Origin: a virus
Lineage: Duplodnaviria > Heunggongvirae > Uroviricota > Caudoviricetes
Direction: 5' to 3' (one strand)
IMG/VR virus record: IMGVR_UViG_2657245091_000008
Length of the DNA: 64,000 nt
Positions 1,203 to 35,892 of this stretch are shown here, piece after piece. Both the position numbers and the translations under genes were made by a program. The first letter of the stretch is position 1. Every line of letters begins with the position of its first letter. Under the pieces are notes generated by a model. That model was not told the DNA's origin, made no database searches, and was given only the letters and a program-made list of their open reading frames with translations.

Positions 1203-2108
1203 TTAACGTTCTGCTTCACCACCAACGGCCTCCACCAGCGAAGTGAACATCGCGGATAATTCAGCAGTAAACAGGATAAAGTCAGCGTCAAATCGTTGCG
1301 CAACATCCTCTCGATCAATATCGTCGTTCTGGTCGTACAATTCGTCGCTGAACGACAAAGCCTTGATACTCATATCGTCATTCAGTCTGAAAAATGCACG
1401 GTCTTGCCAGTTAACCGCAACTGTGGTTGCAACCTTACCAGCTTCTATATGACTCATGATCTCGTCGGATAGCAGGTCCACTTTTTTGCAGCGGACCGCG
1501 CCGCCATCATCAAGCAATGCTTTTAAGGTCGCTTCCTCACCGGCACGGAAACCGTTCGGGAAGCCATTTTTAATCCAGCCAGTGATGGTCAGTTCTAATG
1601 GGTCTTTCGGAGAGAAGGGGACAACGGGCAAGCTGCCAAGCGATTTCCGTAACAAAGCCAGCTGATCCTCTGCTTTTTTAGCACTGCTGGCCTCGACAAA
1701 AACCAGATGATTGCTTCGGTCTATCAGGATTTTAGCGACTGATTTTCTCGTGAAAGCACGAGGAAGCAGAGAGTGAAGCACTTCATCCTTCAGCGAATCT
1801 TTTTCAGTCTTCTTCAGCTTTCTGTCTTGCTCTTCTTCAAGTGTCAGGATTTTTTTCTGTAACTCTTCTTTGAGCACTTGAGAGGGTAGGATTTTTTCCT
1901 CTCGTTTATGCTGTATCAGAAGAAAACCTTGGTATTCATGGGTGAGGTTGTCGCCAAGAACGGGGGTCCAACCAGCTTTAGCCATATCCTGAGAACCGCA
2001 TGGGGTAAACACAAACTTGCTAAGGGCTGCATTTACTTCTGCAGTATCCCAGCTAACTTCGCGTGAAAGACGATAGATGAAGATATTTTTGAAAGCGACT
2101 GATCTCAT
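1203..2108 (-). CDS. rdgC: Recombination-associated protein RdgC
   Basis: Full-length similarity to E. coli RdgC ([55 protein letters not shown]). Confidence 0.9.
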
Positions 2109-13628: not shown

Positions 13629-13650
13629 TAAAATGTTAGAAAACTAATTT
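13629..13650. promoter_or_regulatory. Operator-like motif copy
   Basis: AAATGTTAGAAAACTAATTT. Confidence 0.35.
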
Positions 13651-14222
13651 ATCAATTCAATTGCCATCTGATACAACGCCATTTCATCGGCATTGTGCCG
13701 TATGAAATCTGCTTTTCCGCCTATTTTTCCATCAGCATGAACAGGGACCAGCCAGGGATATTGTTCTCGGACCTCGGCTGGCGCTGCGTACTGGTGGTGC
13801 CATTTACACAAAGGGAGGACATATTTATGCGCGTTCTCTGCCGTTCTCCCGAAGATATGGTGCAGGGATACCACTGGGCTATGTTGCCCGTGAATATGGC
13901 AGGCAATGCAGGGGAGAGTACCGATAGCGGTCTGTATCCGGCGTTCATCGGCTGTGAGTGATCTGCCCTTCAGGCCGCGTGACGTGCGTGTTTTTTTGGG
14001 CGGAGCGGATACAGCTTTATCTTTTCTCCGCTGTTCATATTGCTTTGCTTTTTCAATTTTCTTTTGCCGATATTCAGGCGATGCGGCTTTTTCTCTCGCT
14101 CGCTGCTGCTGGCGTTGAGCTTGTTGAAGGCGCTTTGCCCTTTGTTCCTCTCGCCAGGCCGGGTCAGCCAATTTTTGCATGGCCTTTTGTCTCTGTTTCT
14201 CCCAATAACTCTGTTTCTGCAT
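13644..14222 (-). CDS. ref: Ref-like recombination enhancement function protein (HNH endonuclease)
   Basis: 192 aa; basic disordered N-terminal half and HNH-like core CIACHIHGQHSPVVSLHHIFGR...PLCKWHH; size and architecture as P1 Ref; operator-like motif in promoter region. Confidence 0.65.
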   Translation of the reverse strand: MQKQSYWEKQRQKAMQKLADPAWREEQRAKRLQQAQRQQQRAREKAASPEYRQKKIEKAKQYEQRRKDKAVSAPPKKTRTSRGLKGRSLTADERRIQTAIGTLPCIACHIHGQHSPVVSLHHIFGRTAENAHKYVLPLCKWHHQYAAPAEVREQYPWLVPVHADGKIGGKADFIRHNADEMALYQMAIELIN

Positions 14223-26843: not shown

Positions 26844-27233
26844 ATGGGCTTCCCTTCTCCTGCGGCGGATTATGTTGAAAGCCGAATTTCTCTTGATCAG
26901 CAACTAATCAGGCATCCATCAGCAACCTACTTCATGCGGGCGGCAGACAGCCATCACCGTGAGGGAATATTGCAGGGTGCTTTGCTGGTGGTTGATTCTT
27001 CGCTTACTCCAGTTGATGGTTCGCTGCTTGTGTGCGCTATGGAGGGTGAATATCGCATAAAGAGATACCGAAAGTATCCGCGCCAGCACCTGGAGGATTT
27101 AAGCACCGGGAAGAAAGAGGCGTTACCAGTAGATGACGATGGTTACACGGGTAGTAATGCTGTTTTTGGTGTGATCACTCATGTCATCAATGATGCCCGA
27201 AGTGGGGAGTTTGATGATTGTCCGGTCATTTAA
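26844..27233 (+). CDS. humD: HumD, UmuD'-like translesion polymerase accessory protein (LexA/S24 peptidase fold)
   Basis: 129 aa starting MGFPSPAADYVE (UmuD' form without N-terminal cleavage segment); adjacent to phd-doc as in P1. Confidence 0.85.
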   Translation: MGFPSPAADYVESRISLDQQLIRHPSATYFMRAADSHHREGILQGALLVVDSSLTPVDGSLLVCAMEGEYRIKRYRKYPRQHLEDLSTGKKEALPVDDDGYTGSNAVFGVITHVINDARSGEFDDCPVI

Positions 27234-27305
27234 GCTGCAAAGTGCTGGTGCTTTATGCCTGTGAAGTTTATGATTGTGTACACATAACGAGTACACGAGG
27301 TGTTT

Positions 27306-27527
27306 ATGCAGTCCATTAACTTCCGTACCGCGCGCGGCAACCTTTCTGAATTGCTCAACAATGTTGAAGCCGGGGAAGAGGTTGAAATCACCCGCAGAGG
27401 CCGTGAACCAGCAGTAATTGTCAGCAAGGCTACTTTCGAAGCCTACAAAAAGGCGGCGCTGGATGCTGAATTTGCATCCCTGTTTGACACCCTGGACTCC
27501 ACCAACAAGGAACTGGTTAACCGATAA
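27306..27527 (+). CDS. phd: Phd antitoxin (prevent-host-death)
   Basis: [49 protein letters not shown]... essentially matches P1 Phd as I recall it. Confidence 0.9.
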
Positions 27528-27907
27528 TGAGGCATATATCACCGGAAGAACTTATTGCGCTTCATGATGCGAATATAAGCCGCTACGGCGGCCTGCCGGG
27601 AATGTCAGATCCGGGTAGGGCAGAGGCCATTATCGGGAGAGTTCAGGCCAGAGTTGCCTACGAAGAGATCACCGACCTTTTCGAAGTCTCCGCAACCTAC
27701 CTGGTGGCTACTGCGAGAGGGCATATATTCAATGATGCCAATAAGCGTACCGCGCTAAACAGTGCGCTGCTATTTCTACGCCGTAACGGTATACAGGTAT
27801 ATGATTCTCCCGTGCTGGTGGAACTTGCGGTGGGGGCTGCAACTGGTGAAATCCCCGTATCTTCAGTAGCGGAAAAACTACGTGAACTATATGGTTCCAA
27901 TATTTGA
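27527..27907 (+). CDS. doc: Doc toxin (death-on-curing, Fic fold)
   Basis: [39 protein letters not shown]...[23 protein letters not shown] matches P1 Doc; ATGA overlap with phd. Confidence 0.9.
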
Positions 27908-27936
27908 AAAGAAGCCCGCTCAACCAGGCGGGCTTC
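27903..27936 (-). terminator. Intrinsic terminator ending the 31822-to-27943 minus-strand operon
   Basis: On minus strand GAAGCCCGC-loop-GCGGGCTTC followed by TTTTCAAAT. Confidence 0.55.
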
Positions 27937-27942
27937 CTACTA

Positions 27943-29049
27943 TCACTCAATGATTTTTTCTGCTGTCAGCCAGCTAATTTCTTGCCTGTCTTTCGGCGGT
28001 TTTAGCATGTGGGCGTATTCAGCAACATTCTCCCACGGAATTGTTTTTGCCCACTCAACGATAGCATTGTGATCTGCAGTGAAGAGTGGAATGGTGTGCG
28101 ATTTCAACCACTCCAATGTTGTAACGCCATGTTTTTTGGCGTGGTGCTGTGCATGATGCCGGGCTATCACTCGTAATGGCATTATCCATTCACTACCATC
28201 AGGCATCGAAAAGCGCATTGTCTTCGGCATATCTGATTCAAGAACAGCCTCCCTAATACCAGGAAACTCACCAAGAACCATACGACGGTAGTAATCGCTG
28301 TTTTTACCACCATATATTTCTGCAATGTTATCAAGATAACCTTGAGAAATAATGGGGGTATCTTCTGCGTTCAGCTTGATGGCTGTATAAATACCACATG
28401 GATTTTCTTCTGATTTAGCACGACCATGATGGGAATCGTAAAAGTGTCCATGCTCCTCCTCTGAAGGAGCGGACATTAAAAGTATACGTGAATCGTCACT
28501 TACTAACGATGCTCTTAACATGCTGAATAGCCGATCGCCAGCAAGAGCCGCCTCCGTAACAATGATTAAAAGATGTTCAGCATAATATCCACCGAAACCT
28601 TCCTCATAATTTCGGTGATATGGCTTAATTTCGCAGCCCCAATATTCCCGGTAACGATGATTGATGCCGTTTCCATCGACTTTAAAATATTCTCCCAGCA
28701 ATGGGATTCTGTTACTGACTCTATCCCAATACGTACTTATGTATTGGATAACTTGCCTGCGACAATTATAGAACTTTGGGGAAACAATAACCGTTTTAGA
28801 CTCAGGCATCAGGATTGTATAAAGAATACTAATTATAGCGATAACCGTCTTTTGGCCTATCCCTTCAGGAGTGGTGACGCTGACTGCTGAACCTTTTTGT
28901 TGAATCGCCTCAACAATTAGCTTTTGCTGGTGGGTTAACTTAACACCCATCAACTCTTCTGCTGCTAATGCCCAGTCATGGCTATATTTGCTTACCAGCT
29001 CTCTCCACTCTGGTAATTCGGTGATGTTTTTAGGCGTCAGCATCAGCAT
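27943..29049 (-). CDS. Terminase-large-subunit (PacB) ATPase-domain paralog, degenerate, no nuclease domain
   Basis: Aligns with the PacB ATPase domain encoded at 34384-35892 (HQQKLIVEAIQQKGS...; FYDSHHGRAKSEENPCGIYTAI vs FYDSHHSQAKTPDNPKGIWTAI); Walker A becomes EGIGQKT, Walker B LDE becomes VTE; 368 aa vs 502 aa. Confidence 0.6.
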   Translation of the reverse strand: MLMLTPKNITELPEWRELVSKYSHDWALAAEELMGVKLTHQQKLIVEAIQQKGSAVSVTTPEGIGQKTVIAIISILYTILMPESKTVIVSPKFYNCRRQVIQYISTYWDRVSNRIPLLGEYFKVDGNGINHRYREYWGCEIKPYHRNYEEGFGGYYAEHLLIIVTEAALAGDRLFSMLRASLVSDDSRILLMSAPSEEEHGHFYDSHHGRAKSEENPCGIYTAIKLNAEDTPIISQGYLDNIAEIYGGKNSDYYRRMVLGEFPGIREAVLESDMPKTMRFSMPDGSEWIMPLRVIARHHAQHHAKKHGVTTLEWLKSHTIPLFTADHNAIVEWAKTIPWENVAEYAHMLKPPKDRQEISWLTAEKIIE

Positions 29050-29836
29050 CCTCCGCTACCTCTGCCTCCACATCTGCCGCGACTTCATCGGACTGTTCTT
29101 CTTTGGCCTGTTCTGCAATCGCCGCACGGCATTTGGCCCTTGCTGTGGCGATTGCTTCAGCACGCACATCATCAGGAATCGTTGACGTGATATACATATC
29201 CAGTTCTTCGGCGCGGAACACTGTTTGGTCCAGATATTCGCGTAGCATCCAGGTAAATTCGAAATCACACGCGATAATCTCTGCGCTACCTTCTGCACCA
29301 TTTGGGAAATGAATAAATGCCTGTTTAGCCAAACCGATAACACGACATGCGGTTGCCAAAACAGCGACAACCAGATTTACATTTTCACACGCTACGGGCT
29401 GATTAACGCCGGAGATTACTCCATTTAACTGTCGGTTATATGGAAGGTAGTTTGAGATGCGTTCTACGCGCCATGTGCCAGTCAGGCTGCCATTTTTAAA
29501 GATAATTGGTGTAACGGATAGCCCAAGCTCGCGTATAAGTCGTTGCGCTATAGCAGGATCATTAAACAGGTCTAATGCTACACATTCGAAAGACTGCGCA
29601 AGGGCAAACAGTTCTTCCAGAGAGTAGTCTTTGCCCCTGGCGGTGATGTAACGACGAACGCCGCTGTCTGCATCACTCCATATAGCTACGCCATGCTCTT
29701 CATTCAGTTCTTCATTAAAGCCGAGATACGTCATGATAGTGCGTTCAATCGTGTCAAACGGCAGTGACATGTCGGCGTTAACAGCCACCAGCAGGCCATT
29801 ACGCAAGCGGTATTGAATTGTTTTGGTGCTTTCCAT
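29030..29836 (-). CDS. Hypothetical protein with acidic C-terminal tail
   Basis: 268-aa ORF in same operon; C-terminal Asp/Glu/Ala-rich tail. Confidence 0.5.
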   Translation of the reverse strand: MESTKTIQYRLRNGLLVAVNADMSLPFDTIERTIMTYLGFNEELNEEHGVAIWSDADSGVRRYITARGKDYSLEELFALAQSFECVALDLFNDPAIAQRLIRELGLSVTPIIFKNGSLTGTWRVERISNYLPYNRQLNGVISGVNQPVACENVNLVVAVLATACRVIGLAKQAFIHFPNGAEGSAEIIACDFEFTWMLREYLDQTVFRAEELDMYITSTIPDDVRAEAIATARAKCRAAIAEQAKEEQSDEVAADVEAEVAEDADADA

Positions 29837-29842
29837 GTCAAA

Positions 29843-30499
29843 TTACTCCACTACAAACCAGTCACATGCCAGTAAATCAGCAACAGACGGCAACCAAACG
29901 TTGTCTATATTTTGCGCATCCTTCAATACAAAATGGTCGCCATAAGGAACCTGAATGTCGTGGAAATTGACGCACCCAGCTAGAACTAACCAGCAGCATT
30001 GCTTTTCGCCTTTCCACCCGCGTCGAGATACCTTTCTTCCTTCTTTCAACCACGTCAGCGCGACAGAAAAGTCGGCTGCTTCAAGGTCGATTTCTTCTTG
30101 TTGGGTAGTGATACCACCAGCAGAAATAGTTACGTCCCTGGCTGTAATGAATGTCACCCCATTGTGACCTTCAATCCTGAGCGATACCCCATTTTCGAAG
30201 ATGTCGTTAGTTCGACTAAAGCCATCTTTAAATTTCTTTTCTGATAAACAGGACAGATGACCTTCTTCATCAACGACAAGATAGCCGCCAACTTGTGGTA
30301 GGTGTTTTTGCAAAAACATTGCATCAACATAGATTCTTACTCCTTTGGGTTCTGTGACCTCGATTTCACCACAATTAGGCATCACAGGAGTAATACCACC
30401 GATGTATTTGATATTCTTGATTTTCGATGCACTAACGTTTTTGTGAGCTTTGTATTTGGGAAGGAACTTAAAAAGCTCTTTCGTTGCCATGTTATTCAT
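29843..30499 (-). CDS. Hypothetical protein with C-terminal DUF2829 (Tad2-like) domain
   Basis: C-terminus ALTWLKEGRKVSRRGWKGEK...VWLPSVADLLACDWFVVE fits the DUF2829 pattern as I recall it. Confidence 0.5.
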   Translation of the reverse strand: MNNMATKELFKFLPKYKAHKNVSASKIKNIKYIGGITPVMPNCGEIEVTEPKGVRIYVDAMFLQKHLPQVGGYLVVDEEGHLSCLSEKKFKDGFSRTNDIFENGVSLRIEGHNGVTFITARDVTISAGGITTQQEEIDLEAADFSVALTWLKEGRKVSRRGWKGEKQCCWLVLAGCVNFHDIQVPYGDHFVLKDAQNIDNVWLPSVADLLACDWFVVE

Positions 30500-30513
30500 A
30501 GTCTTTTCTCTGC

Positions 30514-31008
30514 TTATAACTTTTCGTACTGAAGCGGTGAACGCTTAATTTCAAAGTGGCCTTCCGATGTGCTACCAAAGCCACCAGCACCACGTTCCGT
30601 TTCGTTGAGTTCCTCAACCTCGACTAGTGAGACTTGTTCAACACGCTCAAAAATGCCTTGCATGACAGCCATTCCAGGCTTGAGACAAACGCCTTCCCCG
30701 CCGGGATCAGTAATCAGTTTTGCCATGATTTCACCGCGATAATCGGAGTCGATAATTCCTACGCAGTTAGCCAGGCGAGTATGTTTTTTGCAGCCCAATC
30801 CGGATCGCGGATAGAGTTTCAGACACCAGCCGGGCGGGATCTCCATAGCCAGTCCGGTATACACCCACCAGCTTGAGGAAATTGCACCATTGCTATCGAC
30901 GCATGGTTTTATTTCAACAGCCTCAAAATCCATCGCCGCCGATCCGGAGGTGGCATAAGCTGGAAGTTTTGCTGCCGGATGTAGGCGTTTCACTTTTACG
31001 TAAATCAT
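30514..31008 (-). CDS. dut: dUTP diphosphatase (trimeric dUTPase)
   Basis: dUTPase motifs: GSAAMD, PRSG, GIIDSDYRGEI, RGAGGFGST. Confidence 0.8.
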   Translation of the reverse strand: MIYVKVKRLHPAAKLPAYATSGSAAMDFEAVEIKPCVDSNGAISSSWWVYTGLAMEIPPGWCLKLYPRSGLGCKKHTRLANCVGIIDSDYRGEIMAKLITDPGGEGVCLKPGMAVMQGIFERVEQVSLVEVEELNETERGAGGFGSTSEGHFEIKRSPLQYEKL

Positions 31009-31481
31009 TGTTTTTTAGCTCTCTGCGTGAAGGTGTAAACCCGACGTTTGATATGTGGAACGGTAGGAACAGGAAGACAGGAACTTTCAATAACTCCTTG
31101 CTCCTCCAGCGATCGCACCGCCCGCAAGAACTGCGACGTGTCGCCGCCAAACTGGCGGGCATAGGTGCTGCCGTTATGAAGTATTTGAGCTATTACCCGA
31201 GCTTTTGTCTGGCTGACACGATATGCGAATAGCCGCACGGCCTCTTCTGGCGCAATCGCTAACTGATAGCCTTTCCCGGCACGGTGTCGAATGAATCCAT
31301 GCGCCAGTAGGTTTTTGAGTTCGTTACGAGTGCGAACAGATCCGTAATCCAGGAAGTGTGGATTGATAACGACTGGCTTAAACCATTCCGTAGGTGCTTT
31401 AGCTAATAGAGCTAACAGCTTCCCGGATAATTCTGGATAGGAAGACGGGTAACAATTCAGAGATGGGTAATAAGTTTTCAC
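31005..31481 (-). CDS. Hypothetical protein
   Basis: 158-aa ORF, overlapping stop/start in operon. Confidence 0.5.
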   Translation of the reverse strand: MKTYYPSLNCYPSSYPELSGKLLALLAKAPTEWFKPVVINPHFLDYGSVRTRNELKNLLAHGFIRHRAGKGYQLAIAPEEAVRLFAYRVSQTKARVIAQILHNGSTYARQFGGDTSQFLRAVRSLEEQGVIESSCLPVPTVPHIKRRVYTFTQRAKKQ

Positions 31482-31822
31482 CGACGCCCCCTTGCAGGAT
31501 ATCGACCTGCATTAGTATCCGGTGCAATAAAGCCGGTAGTGGGGCGAGTGAAAGCGAGATTAATCTTCTCGACCATAGTGCGATAATTTTCCTGATAGTG
31601 GGCCAGGAGTTTTTCGGCGGCAATGATGGTTACTTTCCGGACGTAGCTTTCTGCTTCCTCCAGATTTCGCCAGTTTTTTTCGAGGGTAAACACAGGGACG
31701 GCCTCAAGCCCGGTCATGATGCCGAACACAACGACAGCATGACTGTTCTTAACACCAGCGGCGAAGGTTACGGTGTAACCATCCACCTTGAAGCGTCTTG
31801 ATTCCGTGATTTGACTCTGCAA
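31478..31822 (-). CDS. Hypothetical protein (first gene of operon)
   Basis: 114-aa ORF; operator-like motif about 55 bp upstream. Confidence 0.5.
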   Translation of the reverse strand: MQSQITESRRFKVDGYTVTFAAGVKNSHAVVVFGIMTGLEAVPVFTLEKNWRNLEEAESYVRKVTIIAAEKLLAHYQENYRTMVEKINLAFTRPTTGFIAPDTNAGRYPARGRR

Positions 31823-31876
31823 AGCACCCTCCTAAATAGGCGAGGGTACTTTACAGCAAAGGCGTTAATCTAAAAA

Positions 31877-31897
31877 GATGTGTTAGAAATTTAATTT
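31877..31897. promoter_or_regulatory. Operator-like motif upstream of the 31822-to-27943 operon
   Basis: GATGTGTTAGAAATTTAATTT. Confidence 0.45.
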
Positions 31898-32924
31898 ACG
31901 AATCCATCAGGCGGCTATTAGCCCCCACAGACACGCCGCCACGGCGAAGATACCGCATAAGTGTTTCCGGTTTCTTCCAGGTTCCTTCCTGCATGATCTC
32001 CACCATAGACACCTGCTTTTCAGCCATATCAATAGCGGCCCCGACGCGTGCACTATGCCCGGTCCACGTCCGGTATCTTCCTTTGTTTGGCGTAGCATCT
32101 CTTTTATTCAGCAACACCCAGGCGTCGCTGAATATTTTCTCCATTGCAGGTGCAGTAAGGGGTGTTGTCGTGATCCTGGCCTTATTGCTACGGTGTATCG
32201 GCGGGAACAGCACTGCGTCAGGATGTTCGCGAAGCCCGGAAACATCCAGCCAGTCATTCAGCACAGCGGTAGTGCGACGGGAAAGCACCTTATCAAGCCC
32301 GGCGGCGGTCGTTATTGTCTTCGTGTGTGAAATATGTAGCGTGACAGTGTCACCTGTTTGATCCAGATCTCCTACACGAATACGCGAGATTTCCGACATA
32401 CGCATCAGCGTATTGTATGCAACAAAGAGAAAAGCCCGGTTGCGCAGGTCCACCAGCCGTTCTGACCTGGACAACAGGACGTCGAGCAGTTTCAGATCGT
32501 CCCACCGAAGCGGTATAGCCTGGCCTGTTCGTTCGCCTTTTTCAGTTGCCGCTTCGCGCCGGATGCGCCGCATAGCCAGAGAAACACTTTTATCATCCGA
32601 AAGTGGCGGAAGACCACAATGCGAAAGCAGCATGTTCAGCATGGCGTAGTGCTTATCAATGGTGGTCGAAGCCAGATCGGCATCATGCAGCTGAAGAAAA
32701 TACTCGCGGGCCATTTCTGGTGAGATCGGAAACCAGGCAAGCTGGCGAGCGTGACACCAGCGCGCCCAGGAATGAAACACCAACCGGAGGTCGCGCAGAG
32801 TATTCGGCGCATAAGCCCCCTGGTCATTCATGAACCGCATAAAGTTTTCTGCGGCTTCCTGGTACTCTTTGCCAATGTTGCGCAGAAAACCACCGGAACT
32901 GCCAGAGATAATTAATTCACTCAT
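31896..32924 (-). CDS. cre: Cre-like tyrosine site-specific recombinase
   Basis: Collinear similarity to P1 Cre (SWARWCHARQLAWFPISPE, VSLAMRRIRRE, AYNTLMRMSEISRIRVGDL, WTGHSARVGAAIDMA); R-H-R-Y-type catalytic residues present; divergent, not identical. Confidence 0.85.
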   Translation of the reverse strand: MSELIISGSSGGFLRNIGKEYQEAAENFMRFMNDQGAYAPNTLRDLRLVFHSWARWCHARQLAWFPISPEMAREYFLQLHDADLASTTIDKHYAMLNMLLSHCGLPPLSDDKSVSLAMRRIRREAATEKGERTGQAIPLRWDDLKLLDVLLSRSERLVDLRNRAFLFVAYNTLMRMSEISRIRVGDLDQTGDTVTLHISHTKTITTAAGLDKVLSRRTTAVLNDWLDVSGLREHPDAVLFPPIHRSNKARITTTPLTAPAMEKIFSDAWVLLNKRDATPNKGRYRTWTGHSARVGAAIDMAEKQVSMVEIMQEGTWKKPETLMRYLRRGGVSVGANSRLMDS

Positions 32925-33076
32925 GAAACTATTTGACCTCTATATACAGATGACGCTACGCGAAAAATATAAAAATGACAGGGTAGCTATAAGTTAATTT
33001 TCAAAATACAAGCCTTTGATTCGAGGCACGTATTTTCAGTGATGTCAACACTGTTCATCTACACATGATTATAGCC

Positions 33077-33108
33077 TAACTTTAAATAATGCCAATTATT
33101 TAAAGTTA
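33077..33108. other. lox-like recombination site candidate
   Basis: TAACTTTAAATAAT-GCCA-ATTATTTAAAGTTA, perfect 14-bp inverted arms (or 12-bp arms with 8-bp spacer ATGCCAAT); arms share TAACTT and ATA with loxP arm ATAACTTCGTATA; about 150 bp upstream of cre-like start. Confidence 0.5.
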
Positions 33109-33285
33109 CAGAATGGCGATTTTTTTTAATCCATCATAGATTGATTTTGACCAGTAACACGTTGCCTTCATGGTCTTTAATTTGCGAAGTGTGGTTTATA
33201 CAGTTGGTTTTCTAAAATTGATGACAAAAAATCACAGTTCGATCCTTTACTCACTCTGTTATTCGACATAAATTTGTCATAGTAA

Positions 33286-33307
33286 TTTTATGTTAGAAAA
33301 CTAAATC
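33286..33307. promoter_or_regulatory. Operator-like motif upstream of 33319 gene
   Basis: TTTTATGTTAGAAAACTAAATC. Confidence 0.45.
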
Positions 33308-33318
33308 GAGTAGGAATA

Positions 33319-34356
33319 ATGAGTAAGAAGTCGATCGAGAAAGAGTACAAACGGTTCCTGCAAACCGCTGAACGGTGGAAAGAGCTGGTGGTCGCAAACT
33401 CTGTTTTCCATGATACCAGTTATGCTGGCGAGGAATTCCGCCATGTTGCATTAACGCATGACCAAAACATATTAGAAGAAGCTGAAAAATGTCTTGCTGA
33501 ATGGAAAGCCTTCGTTGACATGTGCCGCGATGCCGACGGCAAAGCGTCGAACATTGTTGAGTCTGTATATTCTCCGATCCCATTCATCATTGAGGACACC
33601 AATCAAAGCACGCATGTTGTTGTGCAAAGCGCTACAACAACACGTACATTTACACGTGAACAATTGCTCAAAAAATACGACAAAATCATAAAGAAAAGCC
33701 TGAAAAATAGGGTTTTTTCTCAAATTGTAGGTGCTCTTGAAGAAGAACAGCGCTTCTTTGAAGCTGAGCCTGAAGGCGAGATCTACCGGGCGCGTAAAGA
33801 GGCATATACAGATGTTGTGCTGACAACAAACATCGAAGGCAGCAATGCCCTTTCTCGCTTTAGAGTTGGCGCACATGGCGCATTGGTTTTCGCAAGACTA
33901 CCGAAGACAACGATCCCCGTTGTCAATAATGTTGGTGAACGCCGGAGCATTACAATTTATTCAGGCGTCGAATCGGTACCTTGCAGCCTTCTCGGCGATT
34001 TTAACTTATATCGTGTTCGTGACCTGGAAAAACACCAGCCAAGCTACGTTGCGAAGTCGTACATCTTAAGGAACATCGATATTCGCAATGAAAGCCTTAA
34101 GCAGAAATCCGCTAAGATGCTGGAGGATGCCGATCCGGCTATTCGCCATATCATTGAGCGTAAGATACGTACATCACGTGAAGCAATGGCAAGGCTGGAT
34201 AAAATGGATCTGGAATTGTTAGACGTAATGATGGCCTCTGGAGACGACCTGACCGGCATTAAACTGAATGAAGCTCGTAAAAAATACGGCAAAGCAATCG
34301 AAGAACGTTACGGATACACATTCCCCCAAACGCAGTACGCCGCGAAGCTCTGGTAA
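33319..34356 (+). CDS. Hypothetical protein occupying the c1-like position (convergent with pacB)
   Basis: 345-aa ORF; operator-like motif overlaps its promoter region; no HTH recognised. Confidence 0.5.
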   Translation: MSKKSIEKEYKRFLQTAERWKELVVANSVFHDTSYAGEEFRHVALTHDQNILEEAEKCLAEWKAFVDMCRDADGKASNIVESVYSPIPFIIEDTNQSTHVVVQSATTTRTFTREQLLKKYDKIIKKSLKNRVFSQIVGALEEEQRFFEAEPEGEIYRARKEAYTDVVLTTNIEGSNALSRFRVGAHGALVFARLPKTTIPVVNNVGERRSITIYSGVESVPCSLLGDFNLYRVRDLEKHQPSYVAKSYILRNIDIRNESLKQKSAKMLEDADPAIRHIIERKIRTSREAMARLDKMDLELLDVMMASGDDLTGIKLNEARKKYGKAIEERYGYTFPQTQYAAKLW

Positions 34357-34364
34357 TCACAACC

Positions 34365-34390
34365 GGCCCCGCATCGCGGGGCTTTATATA
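34365..34390 (+). terminator. Intrinsic terminator after 33319-34356
   Basis: GGCCCCGC-ATC-GCGGGGC followed by TTTATATAT. Confidence 0.5.
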
Positions 34391-35892
34391 TCCAGATCTG
34401 GCATTTCGATATCCGCCAGAACCTGATCTCGGAAAGTTGCCATTTCGGCACCAATATCTTCATTAGCAGGCACATAGTCCACCAGCATAGTGAAGCAGTA
34501 GGTATCCCATCGGTCAGGCGATTTGATGTTTAGCTTTTGCCGCATGTGCTCTTTGCGCATCATCGCCATTTTCCCTTCCTCATTCAGTAAAAAGGGGATT
34601 TTTGACGCTTGCTCTGCCGTTTTAGGGTCACTGTCTATCCGCATACGCCCTGACTTTATGGCATCACGCGCCATAATATTTGCGTAGGCACGCTGATTAA
34701 CAAATCGCTCCCTGTCTTTGTTCGCAAACATGGGTTTTCCCCACCGAATACGTACCGGGTTCGCACCACGACGCACCAACTGCGCACACGTATCAGAACC
34801 AAAACCATCGGCATCAACCGCGATTGTTATATTCGGGTATTTTTCCGGCGTACATTCGTTATATATAAAGTCAGCAAAGGCCAATGGGTCCATAGTGCCA
34901 GGCATCTCCATTACCTTAAAGTTAACAACGCGCCGCTTATCCCTGTGACCAGATACCTTGCAGATGTTGAGGACCGACTTATCTCGCCCATTACCAACGT
35001 CAGCCGTTGCCACCCATCCCCAGTTTTTCTCCAACAACACCTTGCGGCGAGCAGCGCGATCGCATTCATCACGACCAAGCAAATAGCCGTTAATTTCTCG
35101 TGGGAACTGACCAAGCACCTTGACCATATACTCAATAGAATCGCGCCCACCATATTCCAGAAGCTTCTGCTTGATGAATTGTGGTGTGACGAACGGTGAT
35201 TCTTCCGAGTTAAGAACAATTGCTGTCCAGATCCCTTTCGGGTTGTCTGGGGTTTTTGCTTGAGAATGGTGCGAATCGTAGAAATAACCACTTGGCCTTG
35301 TTGGCTGGGATAGCATCAACATCCGGTTATCTTCTTCAGTAAGAGCACCGGTCATTACGCCGATCGCCTTATCAGATATACCAGATGCTTCATCCAGAAT
35401 TAGAAGCAAATGTGCCGCGTGTTCCCCCGCCAGCGCTTCTTCGTTGCCGAGTCGATAACCTTTGCAGAGAACTTCCCAAATCCCCTTACGGGAGCGCTCA
35501 TAAAACATGGTGTCAGAGAGGACAAAATAGGTCTGCAACCACCCATGACGCTTAACTGCATTCGCCCAATACTGTTTAACGTATTTGAATACGCCTGTTT
35601 TTACCTGGCCTATCTTGTTAGCAACAATGATGACACGGGCATCGGGGAACAGGATCATAAAAATCAACAGCAACATCGCGGTAAGGGACGACTTCCCCGT
35701 TCCGTGTCCGGACGTGACGGTCGTCCTACTCCCCGTTTCCTGCACTGACTGAATGATCTGCTGCTGCTGGTGGGAGGGGAACATCCCAAAAATATCGACA
35801 ACAGCCTGGGTAAAGTTGTAGCGGTATTTGATTACCATATCGCGCCAGCGTGGATCGCTGGTGACGCATTTAATCTTGCGCCCGCCAGCCAT
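34384..35892 (-). CDS. pacB: Terminase large subunit (PacB-like)
   Basis: 502 aa; Walker A VTSGHGTGKSS, Walker B LLLILDEAS, C-terminal acidic nuclease-like residues; directly follows pacA-like gene. Confidence 0.8.
   Translation of the reverse strand: MAGGRKIKCVTSDPRWRDMVIKYRYNFTQAVVDIFGMFPSHQQQQIIQSVQETGSRTTVTSGHGTGKSSLTAMLLLIFMILFPDARVIIVANKIGQVKTGVFKYVKQYWANAVKRHGWLQTYFVLSDTMFYERSRKGIWEVLCKGYRLGNEEALAGEHAAHLLLILDEASGISDKAIGVMTGALTEEDNRMLMLSQPTRPSGYFYDSHHSQAKTPDNPKGIWTAIVLNSEESPFVTPQFIKQKLLEYGGRDSIEYMVKVLGQFPREINGYLLGRDECDRAARRKVLLEKNWGWVATADVGNGRDKSVLNICKVSGHRDKRRVVNFKVMEMPGTMDPLAFADFIYNECTPEKYPNITIAVDADGFGSDTCAQLVRRGANPVRIRWGKPMFANKDRERFVNQRAYANIMARDAIKSGRMRIDSDPKTAEQASKIPFLLNEEGKMAMMRKEHMRQKLNIKSPDRWDTYCFTMLVDYVPANEDIGAEMATFRDQVLADIEMPDLDI

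Follow-up and report, generated by a model that had tools for sequence, protein, structure and literature searches.

A candidate early accessory operon downstream of dre in a D6-like phage-plasmid, with a stable four-gene core, a Tad2-like gene and a degenerate PacB copy

What does a compact operon wedged between a recombinase gene and an addiction module contribute to a temperate phage? We addressed this question in a 64,000-nucleotide stretch of Caudoviricetes DNA (IMG/VR record IMGVR_UViG_2657245091_000008; hereafter, the window), where a sequence-only reading had singled out the region 27903-31897 as a possible anti-defence or host-takeover cassette. The window as a whole represents a D6-like phage-plasmid with Dre/rox, a relative of P1 that is distinct from P1 itself. 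The region is 96.8% identical in DNA sequence to phage D6 across 61% of its length, and 99.8% identical, at 100% coverage, to the E. coli plasmid NZ_CP031917.1 (66706-70692). We consider it reasonably probable that the locus is a non-structural, repressor-controlled early operon of a temperate phage, composed of a conserved core and exchangeable distal genes. It is the accessory operon downstream of dre in D6-type phage-plasmids, equivalent to D6 orf117-orf116-dut-orf114-orf113 plus a sixth gene here.

The translationally coupled organization proposed for the locus was borne out by its open reading frames and their junctions. Six tightly packed minus-strand reading frames occupy positions 31822 to 27943. 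From the promoter-proximal end, these are orf114 (31478-31822; 114 amino acids, isoelectric point 9.75, TTG start; D6 orf117), orf158 (31005-31481; 158 amino acids, isoelectric point 10.05, GTG start; D6 orf116), dut, encoding a dUTP diphosphatase of the trimeric type (30514-31008; 164 amino acids; D6 orf115), a gene encoding a two-domain DUF2829/Tad2-like protein (29843-30499; 218 amino acids; the counterpart of D6 orf114, which is shortened), a gene encoding an IsaA-like protein with an acidic C-terminal tail (29030-29836; 268 amino acids, isoelectric point 4.45; D6 orf113) and, as the sixth gene, a paralogue of the large terminase PacB (27943-29049). The likelier start of this last gene is at 29043, because a GGAGG sequence is well spaced only for that ATG, yielding a 366-amino acid product that matches the RefSeq annotation of homologues. 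The TTG start of orf114 is preceded, at a distance of six bases, by an AGGAGG sequence (31828-31833). Successive genes are joined by a GTGA overlap (orf114/orf158), an ATGA overlap (orf158/dut), gaps of 14 nt (dut/DUF2829 gene) and 6 nt (DUF2829 gene/IsaA-like gene), and an overlap of 14-20 nt (IsaA-like gene/PacB paralogue).

The terminator anticipated at the operon end was likewise found. A minus-strand hairpin at 27907..27933, with a 6-bp GC stem (GCCCGC-loop-GCGGGC) and an 8-nt loop, is followed by UUCUUUUC (UUCUUUU). It has a predicted minimum free energy of -19.8 kcal/mol (z -3.56), and it is kept in variants without the PacB paralogue. From these three overlaps and two short gaps, the six genes are predicted to share a single transcript ending at this hairpin. 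All six evolve under purifying selection, with ratios of nonsynonymous to synonymous substitution (dN/dS) of 0.06-0.36 against diverged homologues, and are therefore real genes. None of the products is structural, in agreement with the proposal that these are not morphogenesis genes. A PADLOC scan of the six proteins returned no significant family, with only weak matches for orf158 and orf114 (E 0.004-0.06), and the locus therefore corresponds to no known defence system.

To delimit what is constant in this operon, we compared it with nine elements, comprising D6, seven plasmids and a Raoultella contig. The order orf117-orf116-dut-isaA after dre is the same in all the D6-like elements inspected (9/9), and a homologue of orf116, used as a marker, is present in 130 plasmid records. 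The two remaining genes are distributed differently: S. Typhi pK91 and the Raoultella element have no DUF2829 gene and D6 has a shortened one, and the PacB paralogue is found in three of the nine. The variability envisaged for this locus hence applies to its distal genes, which are variable and mosaic, but not to the four-gene core, which is collinear in D6-like elements. Across the plasmid database, full-length paralogues occur in 163 records, of which ~44 carry D6-type alleles (at least 60% identity) and ~119 the P1-type allele (~49% identical).

The locus is strongly mosaic. The paralogue gene (27943-29043) is 100% identical at the nucleotide level to its counterpart in pEC361_3 (L005 2541-3641), whereas neighbouring genes are 71-89% identical and doc 98%; the shared stretch is a sharp recombination patch. 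In two other plasmids the IsaA-like protein is 99% identical and the paralogue allele 65% identical. In variants without the paralogue (L008 2498-2640, L011 2998-3140), what remains of the gene is ~30 nt from its start and ~35 nt from its end, and the two pieces meet at a TAATT microhomology whose two copies lie at 27975-27979 and 29015-29019 in the window; these variants therefore arose by internal deletion. The junction is the same in two diverged backbones (IsaA 97% vs 75% nucleotide identity), implying either that the deletion allele spread through recombination or that the same deletion recurred. Presence of the paralogue and presence of the DUF2829 gene vary independently, as does their recombination. 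The orf117-orf116-dut-isaA genes form a stable core, to which the Tad2-like gene and the paralogue are add-ons exchanged among D6-like and P1-like elements.

A D6-like contig from Raoultella (L010 6997-12744), which has neither the DUF2829 gene nor the paralogue, carries a helix-turn-helix regulator, a flavin mononucleotide reductase, a sigma factor and an ars cluster directly after IsaA; the distal operon end is thus a cargo insertion point.

The sequence-only reading did not recognise this gene combination as a described system. For five of the six genes it is not new: in phage D6 (MF356679 / NC_050154, and an earlier fragment, AY753669, with dre, orf2, orf3 and dut) orf113-orf117 are collinear with the window's genes, lie in the same orientation 3' of dre and are preceded by the same intergenic operator-like site, and a 2025 preprint reports that 93% of D6-like phage-plasmids, and 56% of the P1-like ones, have Tad2/AcrIIA7 matches (bioRxiv 10.1101/2025.09.12.675607). 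The sixth gene appears to be undescribed; in D6, a small pdcA-like gene on the plus strand stands where the window has the PacB paralogue, which D6 lacks. P1-like phages (P1, SJ46, MH422554) encode homologues of the DUF2829 (65% amino acid identity), IsaA-like (48%) and PacB-paralogue (49%) proteins in the same relative order, but at ssb-hxr rather than at dre-doc and without homologues of dut, orf116 or orf117. SJ46 has DUF2829 and IsaA, MH422554 has IsaA and the paralogue, and none of the P1-like phages inspected has all three together. The P1 ssb-isaA-(IS1)-isaB-hxr region lies downstream of the C1-controlled Pssb and is non-essential and variable; isaA-IS1-isaB is one of eight variable regions recognised in P1-like phage-plasmids (PMC9603915).

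In P1 itself, a deletion has joined the N-terminal part of the DUF2829 protein to IsaA, and IS1 comes next. In a comparison with SJ46 (L004 4259-5893), the first 65 residues of P1 IsaA (320 amino acids; L003 4570-5532) are 86% identical to the N-terminal end of the DUF2829 protein, and the remainder is 95% identical to IsaA. Reference P1 therefore lost its Tad2-like domain through deletion. P1 IsaB was considered as a remnant of the paralogue and discarded, as BLASTP detected no similarity between them.

The case for repressor control rests on an operator-like site (AAATTAAATTTCTAACACA; 31877..31895, minus strand) located directly after the dre stop codon. Since the P1 C1 operator consensus (ATTGCTCTAATAAATTT) is matched nowhere in the window, even with three mismatches allowed, the operator is not of the P1 type, and we derived the motif de novo. 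The site belongs to a 12-member family with the asymmetric, ~19-nt consensus A(A/T)(A/T)TTA(G/A)TTTTCTAACA(C/T)A. An exact core, TTTCTAACA, is common to the 12 aligned sites (2122, 13634, 14292, 18789, 31881, 33291, 41730, 41886, 43135, 44178, 54080 and 55279), almost all of which are intergenic. Allowing at most one mismatch, this 10-nt core occurs 17 times in the window against 4.95 expected, a count reached in none of 100 shuffles, and the 17-mer after the dre stop codon has four matches at up to three mismatches against 0.26 expected. Sites lie upstream of the c1-like gene (33291) and of genes encoding homologues of Ref (14292) and RdgC (2122). Several copies of an asymmetric operator-like site are hence found at early-gene promoters, including the region of the repressor, as in a C1-type regulon. 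In an alignment of the dre-orf117 spacer, the core of the site at this locus is invariant across eight elements, one of them the Raoultella relative, whose recombinase gene is merely 68% identical. The operator-like motif that had been noted in the promoter region is thereby upheld as a member of a conserved family, but not as a P1 operator.

The genes next to two of these sites encode a homologue of the RecA-dependent nuclease Ref (13644-14222, minus strand) and a homologue of RdgC (1203-2108, minus strand), each with the operator-like site close upstream.

This arrangement resembles that of P1 early operons under C1 control, such as cre-[Op2]-ref and Pssb-Ossb-ssb-isaA, which likewise have an asymmetric operator of ~17-19 bp present in many genomic copies. 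In both systems the operators or operator-like sites lie at promoters of non-structural early genes, and one of them lies just 3' of the recombinase gene. P1 ref is under C1 control, and the P1 record annotates ssb as C1-controlled (Ossb). The systems differ in operator sequence and in the repressor, here a 345-amino acid C1-like protein that is a predicted binder. The 12 sites are hence candidate operators of the C1-like repressor in D6-type phage-plasmids, and their positions give a candidate map of its regulon.

The promoter-proximal genes provide one product with an assigned activity. The dut product is, by curated cutoffs, classed as a bona fide trimeric-type dUTPase: it matches Pfam PF00692 (1.7e-14), NCBIfam NF001862 (121.5 bits vs a cutoff of 103) and TIGR00576 (119.2 vs 102.55), and its translation contains catalytic motifs II (PRSGLG), III (GIIDSDYRGE) and V (RGAGGFGSTS), with a divergent motif IV (AVMQ). 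The orf114 protein matches phrog_1968 (E 4e-48), with no match in PDB or Pfam and nothing beyond its PHROG, and has a dN/dS of 0.19-0.24. The orf158 protein matches phrog_6669 and has a dN/dS of 0.06-0.09. It shows two winged-helix-like sequence patterns, neither significant, together with a weak match to the EutK winged helix-turn-helix (E 0.67), and its weak PADLOC matches are to CARF/CasR; it is possibly a tandem winged-helix DNA-binding protein, the match being below significance. Searches of PDB sequences with single sequences and profiles returned nothing significant for the IsaA-like protein, orf158, orf114 or the PacB paralogue.

The clearest link to anti-defence comes from the fourth gene, in which a Tad2-like domain had been noted. 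Its 218-residue product combines an N-terminal part of ~135 amino acids of an unrelated type with a C-terminal Tad2-like/DUF2829 domain (residues 139-218). This domain matches PF11195 over residues 143-217 (6.6e-17; 62.3 bits vs a gathering cutoff of 25) and aligns over its full length with solved anti-Thoeris sponges: MoTad2 (9eib, 2.7e-10), 8v3e (3.5e-10) and SPO1 Tad2 (8sme, 4.7e-6). In SPO1 Tad2, glycocyclic ADP-ribose (gcADPR) is contacted by W25, N26, I63, T65, D67, H71, W73, S76, T78 and D79 (bioRxiv 10.1101/2023.05.01.538930). In the alignment, four of these contacts (W25, W73, S76 and D79) are conserved and the other six are altered (N26K, I63L, T65D, D67Q, H71N and T78A). With respect to the Tad2 sponges (SPO1 Gp34.65, MoTad2 and HgmTad2/AcrIIA7; PF11195), the C-terminal 80 residues align end to end, and both ligand-stacking tryptophans and D79 are kept; the domain here, however, is the C-terminal third of a 218-amino acid protein rather than a stand-alone protein of ~90 residues, and several polar contacts are changed. 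In D6 orf114 (146 amino acids), most of the N-terminal domain is gone and the Tad2 domain is retained. From this homology, the domain probably sequesters an immune signalling nucleotide.

RefSeq labels the gene in NZ_CP031917.1 as an 'MW1434 family type I TA system toxin', a toxin-antitoxin name that is likely misleading, since no such NCBIfam match was reproduced at E ≤0.1.

The sixth gene was described in the sequence-only reading as a pseudo-terminase or terminase mimic, and the comparison with PacB agrees with the first of these terms. Over residues 7-263, its product shares 34% identity with the PacB encoded in the window (E 2e-52), with homology stopping at ~265, and this N-terminal domain (~1-265) has the fold of a terminase-type ASCE ATPase. 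Across five paralogue alleles, the Walker A motif of PacB (GTGKS) is replaced by GIGQK, GIGHK, GIGRP or GVGTT, with the lysine changed to Q, Q, H, R and T, and the Walker B motif (LDEA) by VTEA, VAEA, VMDA, IVDS and VLNA, converting the Asp-Glu pair into TE, AE, MD, VD and LN. Invariant in the same alleles are, by contrast, the first 55 residues along with FYDSHH, NPxG and YGG. The RNase-H-like nuclease domain is missing, and an unrelated small domain of ~100 amino acids (residues 266-368; 27943-28251) stands in its place. This domain has no Pfam model and has relatives in 192 representative clusters, mostly stand-alone phage proteins of ~100 amino acids. The paralogue thus keeps the ATPase-domain fold and many non-catalytic motifs of PacB/TerL, but conserves neither the lysine of Walker A nor the acidic pair of Walker B and has no nuclease domain. 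Because the catalytic motifs are lost and homology to PacB ends at ~265, before the nuclease, we interpret it as a terminase-derived pseudo-enzyme and not as a second terminase.

Elsewhere, the C-terminal domain is at times fused to DUF1351, or precedes a terminase-like fragment within one protein (P0031). In a Logan contig (SRR15600246, L009; 1869-2261 and 4610-7098), a paralogue with 38% identity comes after a DnaB-like helicase gene, without IsaA nearby. A few kilobases upstream of it lie a large DNA methylase gene and a gene of the Sequestin family (PF21825).

The neighbouring IsaA-like protein belongs to phrog_2326 (E 4e-136) and is 96% identical to D6 orf113 and 48% identical to the IsaA core of P1/SJ46. 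As an acidic protein it had been suggested to be a possible DNA mimic. Of its net charge of -20, 11 units lie within the last 28 residues. We rejected an Ocr/ArdA-like mimic, as the charged tail is absent in most homologues and no fold match to known DNA mimics was found; a BFVD search returned solely a fragment of P1 IsaA. Knock-down of P1 isaA resulted in an efficiency of plating of 0.86, identifying the region as non-essential (PMC10695390).

These results can be combined into a working model. In the plasmid prophage, the C1-like repressor would hold the operon low by binding the D6-type operator beside a weak promoter, and the operon would be turned on early after infection or induction, in the manner of ref and ssb-isaA, the operons that C1 controls in P1. 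Dut would then hydrolyse dUTP, so that new phage DNA is made without uracil, and the Tad2-like domain would most likely bind and sequester an immune nucleotide, TIR-derived or related, and so weaken abortive infection of the Thoeris type. The orf158 protein, which is basic, may bind DNA. The PacB paralogue, predicted to be unable to hydrolyse ATP or cut DNA, must act by binding if these activities are indeed not possible for it, and it would bind a partner of the terminase N-terminal domain: PacA, the portal, DNA or a host terminase sensor.

Several points weigh against this model. The promoter that had been proposed was not recovered, as a sigma-70 consensus scan of 31823-31895 called none; the promoter between dre and orf114 is therefore weak or atypical. 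What is found there is a candidate -10 hexamer (TAAAGT; 31848..31853, minus strand) with a TG just upstream and a weak -35 element (TTTTTA) at a 17-nt spacer. This -10-like sequence, TGTAAAGTA, is kept in seven of eight relatives, and the eighth has TGTACATTA, with TTGCAT at -35. The P1 operator consensus is absent from the window, and we infer, rather than observe, that the operator family is the target of the C1-like repressor. Read-through into the operon, also in the lysogen, may take place, because dre has a strong promoter-like site upstream of it and no terminator was found between it and orf114. Given the altered ligand contacts of the Tad2-like domain (N26K, T78A, H71N, D67Q and T65D) and its fusion to an extra N-terminal domain, ligand binding is a prediction, and the fusion also makes assembly into the homotetramer of Tad2 uncertain. 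Tad2 homologues, moreover, vary in their ligands, which include 3'cADPR, His-ADPR, N7-cADPR, cUMP/cCMP and cyclic dinucleotides (PMC12393519), and the ligand of the 218-residue protein is not predictable because of this variation. Finally, functional homology is lacking altogether for four of the six products. The anti-defence cassette that was originally proposed is accordingly supported in part: the proposal stands for the Tad2-like gene, is plausible for the paralogue and is unsupported for the other genes, and nothing indicates that the six act as one system.

The alternative that fares best, although we judge it unlikely, is that of an early DNA-metabolism module for replication or recombination with no dedicated anti-defence role, in which Dut controls dUTP, the IsaA-like protein (which has a weakly restriction-endonuclease-like fold), orf158 and the paralogue act on replicating or recombining DNA, and the DUF2829 protein is an incidental passenger. 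In keeping with it, Dut is a nucleotide-pool enzyme, the DUF2829-IsaA-paralogue module of P1-like phages is located directly 3' of ssb under the C1-controlled Pssb, the distant paralogue comes after a DnaB/Ban-like helicase gene, and the operon occupies the position of c8-ref-mat downstream of P1 cre (gene order from PMC10695390 Table 2). It sits poorly with a paralogue devoid of ATPase and nuclease residues. The presence of the Tad2 domain in 93% of D6-like elements, and its persistence after deletion of the N-terminal domain, argue for selection rather than hitch-hiking.

A second alternative places the PacB paralogue, possibly with IsaA, at the functional centre of the distal operon as a catalytically dead terminase mimic. 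It would act either as a decoy or inhibitor of STAND terminase sensors of the Avs1-3 type or as a dominant negative that sequesters the PacA or portal of competing P1/D6-like phages. Surface and non-catalytic motifs shared with PacB (the N-terminal 55 residues, FYDSHH, NPxG and YGG) are preserved while the Walker A and B motifs are not. The gene shows presence/absence polymorphism, allele swaps and a higher dN/dS (0.32), and it adjoins IsaA in both D6-like and P1-like contexts. No terminase-derived decoy was described in the literature titles and abstracts searched on terminase, Avs, decoys and anti-Avs. Set against this, the argument is purely structural, the AlphaFold2 model is of moderate quality (predicted local distance difference test score of 67.7), and a 38%-identical paralogue exists without IsaA. 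Clean deletion in otherwise intact elements indicates that the paralogue is dispensable, and its C-terminal domain, a common stand-alone phage domain, may hold the real function. We hence regard this alternative as improbable. The same low expectation extends to its boldest form, in which the pseudo-terminase would be a weapon that blinds STAND/Avs-type sensors or poisons the packaging of competing P1/D6-like phage-plasmids, carried on a cassette traded, usually with IsaA, between dre-doc and ssb-hxr.

Quite doubtful, too, is the idea of cargo expressed in the lysogen by read-through from the dre promoter and serving plasmid-prophage maintenance or host fitness instead of the lytic cycle: an 11/12 promoter-like site upstream of dre with no terminator before orf114, the adjacent phd-doc addiction module and the arsenic-resistance cargo after the operon in the Raoultella relative speak for it, but the invariant operator-like site and conserved -10-like element lie exactly between dre and orf114, and dUTPase and Tad2-like functions fit best with phage DNA replication or infection.

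Clinical E. coli, Shigella and Salmonella commonly carry D6-like and P1-like phage-plasmids, whose accessory loci decide which hosts these elements enter and persist in. For the repressor-controlled early operon favoured here, the analysis resolves the dre-distal genes into four that form a stable core and two that are exchanged as add-ons, and it provides a candidate D6-type operator consensus from which a candidate regulon map of the whole element follows. It also yields a Tad2-like protein with an unusual two-domain architecture and a putative family of terminase-derived pseudo-enzymes in ~160 plasmid records. The annotation of five genes in D6 and the presence of the Tad2/AcrIIA7 family in D6/P1 phage-plasmids were already known. 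The pseudo-terminase family and its association with IsaA appear to be undescribed, as does the D6-type operator consensus in the literature checked, which excludes the D6 genome description. Should the pseudo-terminase turn out to act as a decoy or to poison packaging, this would be a principle new to phage counter-defence or to competition between elements; should it do neither, the locus would be an ordinary early accessory operon.

The genes around the operon complete this picture. Immediately upstream lies dre (31896..32924, minus strand), which encodes a Cre-like tyrosine recombinase; the flanking gene had been called cre-like, and we identify the recombinase as Dre with rox (33077-33108) and not as P1 Cre. 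The rox-like site is a perfect inverted repeat, TAACTTTAAATAAT-4 nt-ATTATTTAAAGTTA. It is overlapped by a promoter-like TTGGCA-16-TATAAT sequence (33095-33068, minus strand) that matches 11 of 12 consensus positions, is directed into dre and is the best sigma-70-like promoter within the scanned interval 27200-33400. An Rfam scan of 27000-33500 returned no RNA family. Further upstream, the window carries the c1-like gene (33319-34356; 345-amino acid product) and pacB (34384-35892), with an intact pacA-pacB pair kept separately from the paralogue. At the opposite end, the phd-doc addiction module adjoins the locus. The D6-like plasmids pMTY12355_3 and pEF-4 lack phd-doc, and in them the operon adjoins a humD-like S24 peptidase gene.

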